Of a stretch of 38,873 nucleotides of DNA, positions 32,154 to 37,477 are shown piece by piece. The stretch comes from a virus (Duplodnaviria > Heunggongvirae > Uroviricota > Caudoviricetes), in the IMG/VR virus record IMGVR_UViG_2734482567_000007, one strand, 5' to 3'. The translations under genes and the position numbers were made by a program. The number at the start of each line of letters is the position of its first letter. Within the stretch, counting starts at the first letter, position 1. Below the pieces are notes generated by a model that saw only the letters and a list, made by a program, of their open reading frames with translations, was not told where the DNA came from and searched no databases.

Positions 32154-32403
32154 NNNNNNNNNNNNNNNNNNNNNNNNNNNNNNNNNNNNNNNNNNNNNNN
32201 NNNNNNNNNNNNNNNNNNNNNNNNNNNNNNNNNNNNNNNNNNNNNNNNNNNNNNNNNNNNNNNNNNNNNNNNNNNNNNNNNNNNNNNNNNNNNNNNNNNN
32301 NNNNNNNNNNNNNNNNNNNNNNNNNNNNNNNNNNNNNNNNNNNNNNNNNNNNNNNNNNNNNNNNNNNNNNNNNNNNNNNNNNNNNNNNNNNNNNNNNNNN
32401 NNN
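32154..32403. other. Assembly gap (250 N)
   Basis: Uninterrupted run of N. Confidence 0.99.
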
Positions 32404-32538: not shown

Positions 32539-33276
32539 TCATTCACTCTCTTTCAAACCAGTTTTAACTGTTTGTGGTTTTGGGTAAGGCTGGACTTTGA
32601 ATAGCTTTGTGTTAAGGCGTTTTCTGGCTCTCTTGTCCAGAAACCGGATGTAACGAAACTGACGGAATTTATGAACACTGGCTCTGTCGATATTAGCCCG
32701 CAGATGTTCACCTCGCTGTCCTCCTCGTTTGATTGCATTCTTGCAAATCTCGTGATACCACTCGCCATCAAGTTCATAGAATGTTGTTTCATGACTGCCT
32801 ACATAATCAAAATTGCTTGCCTGGTACACGACACCAAGACAGCCACAACGCTCATCTGCAAACGACTGAACCCACTGCACCTGCGGATAAAGTTGTCTGA
32901 TTAGTTTGAGCGCGTAACTGATTGCCCTTGATTCGGAGTTTCTCGGCATACAGTCATGCAGCCATAACCGGTTAAGCTCCATATATTCGCGGTTCTGCGT
33001 GCCAGTTACGACGCGTGCACCATTGTTTGGATTAAGGGCATAACCCCATTGCATTACGCCAACCAGCTCCCGTTCTGAAAATATGCCCAGATGAAGGTAG
33101 GAATTATTTACGAAACGATGGCTGTAATGTTTATTGACGACGACCAGCCGGGCCAGCCAGCAACTTATTGTCTCAACCCGTAACTCACGGGAGCCATAAC
33201 CGACGATATTGTCGTTATAGTGAATAAGTTCAGGCGTGCTGATGATACGGGATGTAACTTGCTTTCTGTTCCCCAC
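32539..33276 (-). CDS. mom: Mom-like DNA modification protein; start inferred as GTG at 33276 inside 3' end of com
   Basis: Last gene before the phage end, immediately downstream of and overlapping a Com-like zinc-finger gene; mom frame has no ATG near com stop; GTG at 33276 preceded by AAGGA (9-nt spacing). Confidence 0.55.
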
Positions 33277-33430
33277 GACAGGATTTCCTTGTGTATGTGG
33301 GGTGCTCTGTGGCGCTCTGAGATGTGATTTGATTGAGGGTTTTACAGCGCGGACATTTAACTTCCAGATAACTGAAGCTGGCTCGTGCCAGTAGCTTGTT
33401 ACAATGTCGGCACCGTATGTTTCGATACAT
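33230..33430 (-). CDS. com: Com-like zinc-finger translational activator of mom
   Basis: 66 aa from ATG 33430 (GGAGG upstream); CRHCNKLL...CPRCK zinc-finger resembling Mu Com; overlaps mom start. Confidence 0.7.
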
Positions 33431-33570
33431 GGCCGCATAACCTCCTGCTTTGTTGTTGATATCTTTATCACTCAATCGATCGACAAAAACGATCGATTTG
33501 ATTTATTTAATTGATACAACAAATAACACGAAATGTCATTAGCGAAAATTTATGAGTTTGATCACTAATT
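33431..33570 (-). promoter_or_regulatory. com-mom upstream regulatory region with clustered GATC sites
   Basis: GATC at 33478-33481 and 33491-33494, each within a CGATCG palindrome, and a third at 33560-33563, in an AT-rich region upstream of com. Confidence 0.45.
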
Positions 33571-33686
33571 TTAAACGGTGCTGTAACGCATAAGTGCTGA
33601 ATGATTGTACATTTGAATACCGCAAAGCAAACAAATCAACTAATTTATAGAAGTCAATTGGTTAATTGCCAGCGTAAGAGGCTGCT

Positions 33687-34147: not shown

Positions 34148-34402
34148 TTACATCATGGTACTGTCAGTTCCGGGCTGAGCCGGGTCTGGTTGCTCTGGCT
34201 GCGCGTCGGTTTTCGGCTCATTATCAGCATCACTGGCCGCAACTGCTGGCCCAATAAGTTTTGCCAGCACTTCATCAACGTAAGTGTCGATTTGTGCCTC
34301 AAAATCCTTGCGGACCTGCGCTTTCAGCAACTTATTTACTTCACCGGAATACAGTGCCTGTTTTACCAGGTCTTCAGTGACGGTGCCTTTAATTTCTGGC
34401 AT
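34148..34402 (-). CDS. Hypothetical acidic protein
   Basis: 84 aa; strong RBS AGGAGG 6 nt before ATG; Asp/Glu/Pro-rich C-terminus. Confidence 0.5.
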   Translation of the reverse strand: MPEIKGTVTEDLVKQALYSGEVNKLLKAQVRKDFEAQIDTYVDEVLAKLIGPAVAASDADNEPKTDAQPEQPDPAQPGTDSTMM

Positions 34403-34437
34403 GTATATCCTCCTTATGCGGGAATAAAGCCCTGCAA

Positions 34438-34620
34438 TCAGGGCTGGGTCGGGTCTTTTGGGAGCGGAGTTACCTGCGCTGTTTTACTGAGTTTTTCAGC
34501 TGCTGCGTCCTCAATTTTGCGGCGAACATAATTTCTGATGGCCTTATAACCACCACTCACCAGATATAACGCACATACTGCCGTGCAGAAATACAATAAA
34601 ATAAGCTGTAAAAATGTCAT
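34438..34620 (-). CDS. 60-aa single-transmembrane peptide (candidate small membrane toxin or lysis/exclusion peptide)
   Basis: ATG at 34620 preceded by GGGAGGG; N-terminal hydrophobic helix MTFLQLILLYFCTAVCALYLVSGGY followed by basic/charged tail. Confidence 0.45.
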   Translation of the reverse strand: MTFLQLILLYFCTAVCALYLVSGGYKAIRNYVRRKIEDAAAEKLSKTAQVTPLPKDPTQP

Positions 34621-34635
34621 TATCCCTCCCAATTA

Positions 34636-34758
34636 TTGACATGGTGTTGACACCGGTAATATCTGTTAGGTAAAAAGGTGCACTGCATTTTTTGCTTTGG
34701 ATATAACGATCTTTTTGCCGCCGGTTTCTTGTTTTCCCTTACCGGCGGCATTTTTTTA
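34636..34758 (+). ncRNA. Candidate small RNA transcription unit antisense to the leader of the 60-aa peptide gene
   Basis: TTGACA (34636-34641), 15-bp spacer, TAATAT (34657-34662), then intrinsic terminator GCCGCCGGT...ACCGGCGGC + TTTTTTT (34717-34757); no plus-strand protein gene to serve. Confidence 0.35.
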
Positions 34759-34764
34759 TCCTGC

Positions 34765-36904: not shown

Positions 36905-37477
36905 TCACGGTACTTTTGGTGACGGAGCTGGTGAGGCAGGAAAATAACGATAAAGGGTGGAAAGGCCAATATCAAATATCAGTGCGATTTGTTTACGGGA
37001 CTCGCCATTAGCCAGCAAACGGGCGATTTGCTCCCGCTCTTTCTCTGTCAGTTTCTGAGGTCTGCCGCCATGACGCCCCTGAGCACGGGCAGCAGCAAGA
37101 CCCGCGCGTGTACGTTCAATAATGAGTTCCCGCTCCATTTCCGCCAGCGCGCCCATTATATGGAAAAAGAAACGTCCCATGGGAGTGGATGTATCAATAT
37201 TGTCCGTAATGCTGCGGAAGTTAACGCCGCGTTGCCGGAGTTCTTCTGTTAAAAGGACAAGGTGCTGCATACTGCGTCCAAGGCGATCCAGTTTCCAGAC
37301 CAGCAGGGTATCCCCTGGCCGGAGTCGCTTTAATGCGCGTTTAAGTCCGGGACGCTCCCTTGTCTTACCGCTTATTCTGTCTTCGAAAAACAGCTCACAT
37401 CCTGCACATTCCAGCGCATTTCTTTGTAGCGCCGTATTCTGGTCATTTGTTGACACCCTGATATACCCAATCAGCAT
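36905..37477 (-). CDS. gin: Gin/Hin/Pin/Cin-family serine DNA invertase
   Basis: 190 aa; near-identical N-terminus to Mu Gin (MLIGYIRVSTNDQNT...GDTLLVWKLDRLGRSM...GRFFFHIMGALAEMERELIIERT); adjacent to gix site. Confidence 0.9.
   Translation of the reverse strand: MLIGYIRVSTNDQNTALQRNALECAGCELFFEDRISGKTRERPGLKRALKRLRPGDTLLVWKLDRLGRSMQHLVLLTEELRQRGVNFRSITDNIDTSTPMGRFFFHIMGALAEMERELIIERTRAGLAAARAQGRHGGRPQKLTEKEREQIARLLANGESRKQIALIFDIGLSTLYRYFPASPAPSPKVP

Follow-up and report, generated by a model that had tools for sequence, protein, structure and literature searches.

The plus strand of the spacer between an esterase gene and a DUF1378 gene, at the right end of a Mu-like E. coli prophage, most probably carries an independent small RNA (sRNA) gene that is an allele of the Hfq-bound sRNA EcOnc33 and acts mainly in trans, a reading to which we assign a probability of roughly 0.75. 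The window, by which we mean the whole 38,873-nt stretch of DNA that was analysed, had been described in an earlier note from its letters alone, and the plus-strand small-RNA gene opposing a peptide gene that was proposed there is borne out: the element is homologous to an RNA that has been detected by Northern blotting and found bound to Hfq, and it is convergent with the esterase gene. The pairing of that RNA with the peptide as a type I toxin-antitoxin-like system did not fare as well and is weighed below together with the other explanations of the locus.

Homology to EcOnc33 and the arcA chimera

EcOnc33 was reported as an Hfq-bound sRNA encoded on the minus strand of prophage Sp6 of E. 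coli O157 Sakai (Tree 2014, PMC4104026, Table S2), where it is listed in 5/5 Hfq-CRAC datasets with a predicted Rho-independent terminator and a Northern band of ~71 nt; our literature search found no paper that names it in its main text. All 35 bases of its Northern probe, AAATGTCGTTATATCCAAAGCAAAACATGCAGGAC (PMC4104026, Table S3C), fall within the Sakai spacer between ECs_1527 (esterase) and ECs_1528 (DUF1378), and the strand of the probe places the RNA antisense to both genes. This Sakai spacer is the homologue of window positions 34621-34764, with an identity of 82% over 201 bp and of ~81% over the RNA. Probe mapping and spacer homology together identify the plus-strand RNA of the window as an allele of a known, experimentally detected, Hfq-bound sRNA, and like EcOnc33 it lies in the interval that separates the stop codon of the esterase from the start codon of DUF1378, in antisense orientation to either gene. 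The two RNAs share their slot, antisense orientation, promoter box, terminator and seed region, so that the window allele is tied to EcOnc33 by homology, by synteny and by the conservation of promoter, terminator and seed. They differ in their carriers, a lambdoid prophage for EcOnc33 and a Mu-like prophage for the window allele, in a G-to-U change in the window seed, in a terminator loop that is 5-6 nt shorter in the window, and in an extra TTGACA and an extra TAATAT hexamer upstream in the window's clade.

A host target is indicated by the RNase E-CLASH tables of Waters et al. (PMC5286369, Table EV7), in which EcOnc33 and ECs5359 form a replicated chimera recorded in both orientations. ECs5359 is arcA, the best-scoring recorded CLASH partner of EcOnc33 in O157 Sakai (PMC5286369), and the chimera spans the arcA start codon. 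ECs1528, the Sakai DUF1378 gene, has no entry in the RNase E-CLASH tables of that study. With the arcA start region the Sakai RNA is predicted to form a duplex of -24.5 kcal/mol, an energy matched by 0.4% of shuffles; the window allele reaches -17.5 kcal/mol (2.2% of shuffles as good), its weaker predicted pairing being due to the G-to-U seed change. The Sakai counterpart of the window seed is CUGCAUGUUUUGC, and almost all variants of the EcOnc33 type retain the form CTGCAT[G/T]TTT(T)GC, locus L039 being the clearest exception. When seed energies were scanned across the whole window (5135 tiles; mean -12.8, sd 3.1, best -25 kcal/mol), no second target within the prophage stood out except the site antisense to the RNA itself. 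What is said here of expression, Hfq binding and trans chimeras comes from the literature on the Sakai homologue, by extension from which the window allele would be expressed and would find its targets.

Promoter, terminator and a shared slot

The coordinates of the sRNA gene and of its neighbours are collected in Table 1. The earlier note had placed a sigma70-like promoter at TTGACA 34636-34641 and TAATAT 34657-34662; both hexamers are indeed at these positions, but they are not conserved, and the homologous loci, which the note itself had named as the place to look for a refutation, differ at both. The consensus promoter scan reported no plus-strand promoter at the site, having missed this pair because its 15-bp spacer lies outside the scan's range of 16-18 bp. 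The two extra upstream hexamers are specific to the window's clade and, judging from the alignment of related loci, are probably not the main promoter.

Table 1. Features at the sRNA/DUF1378 site of the window.
Feature	Position	Strand	Basis or remark
DUF826 gene, 84 aa; constant downstream partner of DUF1378	34148..34402	minus	Pfam PF05696, E 6.4e-16; synteny
DUF1378 gene, 60 aa from ATG	34438..34620 (stop codon included)	minus	Pfam PF07125; RefSeq WP_000143468.1
Shine-Dalgarno GGGAGGG of the DUF1378 gene, 3 nt ahead of ATG	34624..34630	minus	read from sequence
Promoter of the earlier note, TTGACA-15 bp-TAATAT	34636..34662	+	both hexamers present; homologues read TTGATA or TTGGCA, and TAATAC
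Conserved -35 box TTGACA of the sRNA promoter	34647..34652	+	GGTGTTGACA invariant in alignment A1
Conserved -10-like box TAAAAA, 18 bp past the -35 box	34671..34676	+	in 31/32 unique slot sequences
Predicted sRNA, ~73-76 nt, EcOnc33 allele	34682..34757	+	5' end inferred from -10 box, ±~3 nt
Putative seed CUGCAUUUUUUGC, largely unpaired 5' part of the RNA	34683..34695	+	part of EcOnc33 in arcA CLASH chimera
Intrinsic terminator: 10-bp stem, 15-nt loop, U7 tail; likely Hfq-binding 3' end	34716..34757	+	fold; conservation
NanS-p-like carbohydrate esterase gene, 684 aa	34765..36819	minus	SASA + DUF6645 domains (Pfam PF03629, PF20350)

The conserved -35 box begins 11 bp downstream of the TTGACA of the earlier note (34647 against 34636) and aligns with the TTGACA of two further sRNAs, PasA and PasC. 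The combination TTGAC-N19-TAAAAA occurs once in the 38.9-kb window, against 0.02 occurrences expected by chance. Across all 84 DUF1378 loci that we compared (32 unique sequences) the -35 box reads TTGAC(A/T/G), or TTTACT in one unique sequence that represents two loci, and the -10-like box reads TAAAAA, or TTAAAA in a single locus. The spacer between them stays at 17 or 18 bp even where indels have shifted the -35 box: in a variant with an 11-bp deletion (the L075-L090 group) the other TTGACA has been recruited and a 17-bp spacer to TAAAAA kept, which argues that the promoter box is under selection. TAAAAA is without the usual T at position -7, leaving the strength of this promoter uncertain. 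The distance from this promoter to the start codon of DUF1378 is 15-26 nt in all loci.

The intrinsic terminator described in the earlier note (34717-34749 plus T7) was found in its place, and its stem extends to 10 bp: GCCGCCGGT (34717-25) pairs with ACCGGCGGC (34741-49), a U34716-A34750 pair is added at the base, and the T7 run follows at 34751-57. A 78-nt RNA folds at -23.6 kcal/mol (z = -4.2 relative to shuffles), and in alignment A1 the terminator stem and the T-run are conserved and the loop carries indels. The minus strand can form this hairpin too, but what comes after it there is A-rich and has no U-tract, indicating that the terminator works in the plus direction only. The esterase stop codon lies 7 nt past the sRNA T-run. 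The RNA had been estimated at ~90 nt; counted from the conserved -10 box, its start would lie near 34682-85 and its length would be the shorter one given in Table 1. The Sakai RNA is predicted at ~82 nt versus the ~71 nt reported, so its 5' end may be processed or may start further downstream. In line with the earlier statement, no protein gene on the plus strand is credible at this site, as the only open reading frames there are antisense to the esterase gene and have the terminator inside them.

The 84 loci comprise 80 IMG/VR DUF1378 loci, gathered by an alignment-based DUF1378 search of the viral collection, together with the window, Sakai Sp6, phage 933W and strain JE86-ST02; a single-protein DUF1378 search of genome contigs gave no confirmed relative. 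In 84/84 loci a promoter box, a GC-rich hairpin and a T-run lie on the strand opposite the genes, and the T-run ends a few bases from the esterase stop codon. These loci resolve into 32 unique spacers, 28 unique predicted RNAs and about six unrelated clusters of RNA bodies, and a locus from Citrobacter farmeri has the same build. Wherever the flank extends far enough (78/80), the gene immediately upstream of DUF1378 is the esterase gene, and downstream of DUF1378 the 80 IMG/VR loci have a class II holin gene in 52 cases, as in a lambdoid late operon, and com in 23, as at a Mu-like end. Read from these alignments, the slot keeps its promoter and terminator and swaps its RNA bodies across lambdoid and Mu-like prophages, and EcOnc33, PasA, PasC and an Esr41-like RNA of phage 933W appear as residents of one slot. 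The covariance-model search suggested in the earlier note, carried out with Rfam on the window and 12 related loci, brought none of the slot RNAs to any gathering threshold, and Rfam contains no family for the RNA of the window.

Other occupants of the slot were seen along the way. At least five more RNA bodies, unnamed and absent from Rfam, have the same TTGAC-N17/18-TAAAAA box and terminator; they lie at L009 2122-2286, upstream of DUF1378 in L031, L038, L072, L087 and L088, and at L092 3342-3500, one of them being that of Citrobacter farmeri.

PasA and PasC (EcOnc51/52) of EPEC E2348/69 are Northern-validated and Hfq-dependent (PMC8550237; bioRxiv 10.64898/2026.05.13.724894). Like the window sRNA, they are convergent genes that abut the stop codon of a sialate esterase in '> < >' orientation and end in a U-run terminator, and their promoters resemble that of the window sRNA in a TTGACA-N10-CTGT..AAAA pattern. 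In contrast, their RNA bodies and seeds are unrelated to those of the window, the mean column identity of alignment A2 being 62% with conservation confined to promoter box and terminator, and the E2348/69 loci have no DUF1378 or DUF826 gene. Membership of the window RNA in a PasA/PasC family by body or seed was rejected, since the RNAs are unalignable outside promoter box and terminator. Among the RIL-seq targets of PasA are two esterase mRNAs, E2348C_0688 and E2348C_1246, at their 3' ends. In the E2348/69 prophage PP2 a second promoter-terminator module (TTGACA...GCCAGCG/CGCTGGC + T7; L002 2760-2890, minus strand) stands in tandem between PasA and the esterase stop codon, and this module probably accounts for the 236-nt minor form of PasA.

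The Rfam model of Esr41 (RF02676) matches window positions 34677-34759 weakly, at 22.2 bits and E 0.13 relative to a gathering threshold of 102 bits. Esr41 resembles the window RNA in its U-rich 5' part followed by a CCGCC-type terminator but differs from it in the seed, and identity with Esr41 was rejected because the score is far below threshold and because Esr41 is located in the SpLE1 island of O157, not beside an esterase gene. The slot RNA of the Stx2 phage 933W (L010 2866-2943, minus strand) is Esr41-like, with a UUUUCUCCAU core and the best Esr41 score (28 bits, E 0.0015), a resemblance that explains the weak Esr41 match in the window; the comparison also suggests that Esr41 on SpLE1 derives from the esterase/DUF1378 slot family. 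The anti-sRNAs AsxR and AgvB and other convergent sRNAs at lambdoid moron sites (Tree 2014, PMC4104026) are similar in being short, Hfq-binding and antisense to late-operon cargo genes, with conserved 3' and variable 5' parts. However, their sequences form another family, and their slot is a separate one that precedes the esterase gene (3' of stx); AsxR was found at its own site in 933W.

The DUF1378 peptide and the cis readings

The peptide gene opposite the sRNA is present as it was first described, a 60-aa minus-strand open reading frame from 34620 to 34438 with a strong ribosome-binding site. Its product matches Pfam DUF1378 over the full length (E 9.4e-32, 109 bits; gathering cut-off 25) and corresponds to PHROG 494; these two, both families of unknown function, are its only family-level matches. 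Kyte-Doolittle means of 1.9-2.1 across residues 1-22 indicate one membrane helix (residues ~2-24), and residues 25-36 hold five K/R and zero D/E and form a basic juxtamembrane tail; hydropathy and residue counts agree with the N-terminal transmembrane helix and basic tail of the earlier note, and the peptide is probably a single-pass membrane protein with its N-terminus out and its C-terminus in. The family alignment has an invariant motif, LYFCT..LYL.SGGY, and across 5.8 billion proteins DUF1378 forms only 76 clusters, all from Escherichia, Shigella and Citrobacter. No known type I toxin family was matched in Pfam, PHROG or NCBIfam, the last returning only sub-threshold MnmH matches, and the consensus promoter scan found no minus-strand promoter upstream of the open reading frame. 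Folding of its leader gave nothing significant or conserved (z -0.96, -0.15, -0.42 and +1.88) and no shared structure. A pairing of CCUUUUU with the Shine-Dalgarno sequence, by which the leader would hide the ribosome-binding site, appears in the minimum-energy fold of the window and was rejected as non-significant and as missing from both the centroid structure and the homologues. Lambdoid prophages carry the gene within their late operon, where it is flanked by those for the esterase and the holin. DUF1378 of the window is an ordinary family member, a small membrane protein of the esterase-DUF1378-DUF826 block. Overlapping its stop codon, directly before the DUF826 ribosome-binding site, is a hairpin (AGCCCTG-attg-CAGGGCT, then TTTATT; 34424-34454, minus strand) that might work as a weak attenuator between these genes or as a stabilising structure there.

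The RNA had been proposed to be antisense to the leader of the peptide mRNA, and this holds in so far as it is complementary to any transcript that reads through from the esterase gene, but not in the sense of an overlap with the ribosome-binding site: between its 5' end (~34682) and the Shine-Dalgarno sequence (34630-24) lies a gap of ~50 nt, filled by the sRNA promoter. That complementarity, which extends along the whole RNA (~75 nt), is the basis of the best-surviving alternative, a putative cis antisense regulator that would base-pair, where the esterase and DUF1378 genes meet, with late transcripts or with those reading through, or would act through convergent transcription, with cleavage or interference as the outcome. 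Such a regulator would reduce leaky expression of the genes downstream, which are DUF1378 and DUF826 and, in a lambdoid phage, also those for lysis, possibly alongside a trans role. The constant distance of the sRNA promoter from the DUF1378 start codon, the position of the slot just upstream of the pinholin cassette in lambdoid prophages and the RIL-seq pairing of PasA with esterase mRNA 3' ends are consistent with it, and the great diversity of slot RNA bodies fits cis-antisense action as well as a trans role; the Mu-like context, however, has no lysis cassette downstream. CLASH and RIL-seq are uninformative on cis pairing because late transcripts are scarce in lysogens. On balance we consider such cis regulation unlikely.

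Bolder, and in our view very unlikely, is the proposal that the slot is a dedicated site for exchangeable sRNA cassettes with dual jobs, acting in trans on host mRNAs during lysogeny and gating DUF1378-DUF826(-pinholin) in cis, with DUF1378 as a lysis or exclusion peptide active at the membrane and restrained by the antisense RNA. This dual role comes close to the toxin-antitoxin idea of the earlier note, according to which DUF1378 would be a membrane toxin and the antisense RNA would pair with its mRNA leader to block translation or trigger decay. The locus does share with hok/sok, tisB/istR-1, ldr/rdl and ibs/sib a small hydrophobic peptide gene adjoining a small-RNA gene of opposite orientation. 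In favour of such a pair, the peptide is built like a small toxin, any transcript reading from the esterase gene into DUF1378 would be a perfect complement of the RNA, an opposing sRNA gene stands beside DUF1378 in 84/84 loci, and the RNA bodies vary freely, as expected if only cis complementarity matters. Yet the co-occurrence is explained equally well by the invariant esterase-slot-DUF1378 synteny, and the locus differs from the known type I systems in having no overlap of start regions (the RNA stays ~50 nt away from the Shine-Dalgarno sequence and the ATG), no detected toxin promoter, no structured leader and no toxin-family match. Moreover, sRNAs of the same build, PasA and PasC, occur with no DUF1378 gene at all, the Sakai homologue is Hfq-bound and has trans targets with no ECs1528 chimera recorded, and the seed is conserved within the EcOnc33 type as expected of a trans-acting RNA. 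We regard a type I toxin-antitoxin-like pair as highly improbable; the gap, the failure to find a promoter for the peptide, the unstructured leader, the lack of a toxin family and the trans-target homologue leave it unsupported.

That there is no RNA gene at all, the hairpin and T-run only stopping stray antisense transcription into the esterase gene and the box being a chance or minus-strand feature, would suit the non-canonical -10 box and the silence of the consensus scan on the plus strand, but can practically be set aside given a box that is conserved in 84/84 loci through indels and body swaps and is so rarely expected by chance in the window, and given Northern blots that detect EcOnc33, PasA and PasC (PMC4104026, PMC8550237).

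Prophage context and meaning

On the minus strand of the window, baseplate and tail-fibre genes are followed by an invertase gene (36905-37477), the esterase, DUF1378 and DUF826 genes, and com/mom (32539-33475), the marker of a Mu-like right end. The 901 bp surrounding the sRNA/DUF1378 site are 100% identical in 14 complete E. coli chromosomes, and of the sRNA spacer itself at least 14 complete E. coli genomes have an identical copy and ~340 more a copy related at 80-89%. A megablast of the region against phage records gave no match, and a more sensitive search of the same records returned only two Stx phages, both with an inserted Mu-like element. No promoter above chance was found for the esterase block downstream of the invertase gene. 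The esterase-sRNA-DUF1378-DUF826 block, whose usual home is in lambdoid late operons before the pinholin gene, is transplanted here into a Mu-like prophage, with the invertase gene on one side and com/mom on the other.

Two other features of this end of the prophage were observed. A run of 250 N (masked or unknown bases) occupies 32154-32403, just past mom at the prophage edge; in NZ_AP022815 the side of the edge next to mom borders ybfB and rhsC. A 97-aa open reading frame (WP_000571916.1; 33687-33980, plus strand) is oriented opposite to its neighbours and has no Pfam, PHROG or NCBIfam match, and two weak promoter-like sites lie at 33666 and 33724.

Taking the element as an EcOnc33 allele that acts mainly in trans, we propose that a sigma-70-type promoter (TTGACA, 18 bp, TAAAAA) would direct transcription from the start deduced above to the U-run of the intrinsic terminator, yielding an RNA of ~75 nt with a largely unpaired U-rich 5' part, a terminator hairpin and a U-tail. 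The prophage would produce this RNA during lysogeny, Hfq would bind it, and its seed CUGCAU(U/G)UUUUGC would pair with host mRNAs, for which the translation start of arcA is the Sakai example; its gene would have a fixed place, with a NanS-p-type esterase stop codon on one side and the DUF1378 gene on the other. An sRNA of this kind belongs to a known class, the prophage-encoded Hfq-dependent sRNAs convergent with cargo genes, and what is new, going by homology and synteny, is an EcOnc33 allele in a new, Mu-like host element.

No new toxin-antitoxin system emerges from the analysis. Instead, a spacer that had no annotation is assigned to EcOnc33, a published yet functionally uncharacterised Hfq-binding sRNA, both the likely promoter and the likely length of the RNA are corrected, and the recorded arcA pairing points to a host target that can be tested directly. 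The block of esterase, sRNA, DUF1378 and DUF826 genes travels as one piece between lambdoid late operons and the ends of Mu-like prophages, and a single slot with a constant promoter and terminator and swappable seeds is useful for the annotation of prophage sRNAs and for studies of how their targets diversify.
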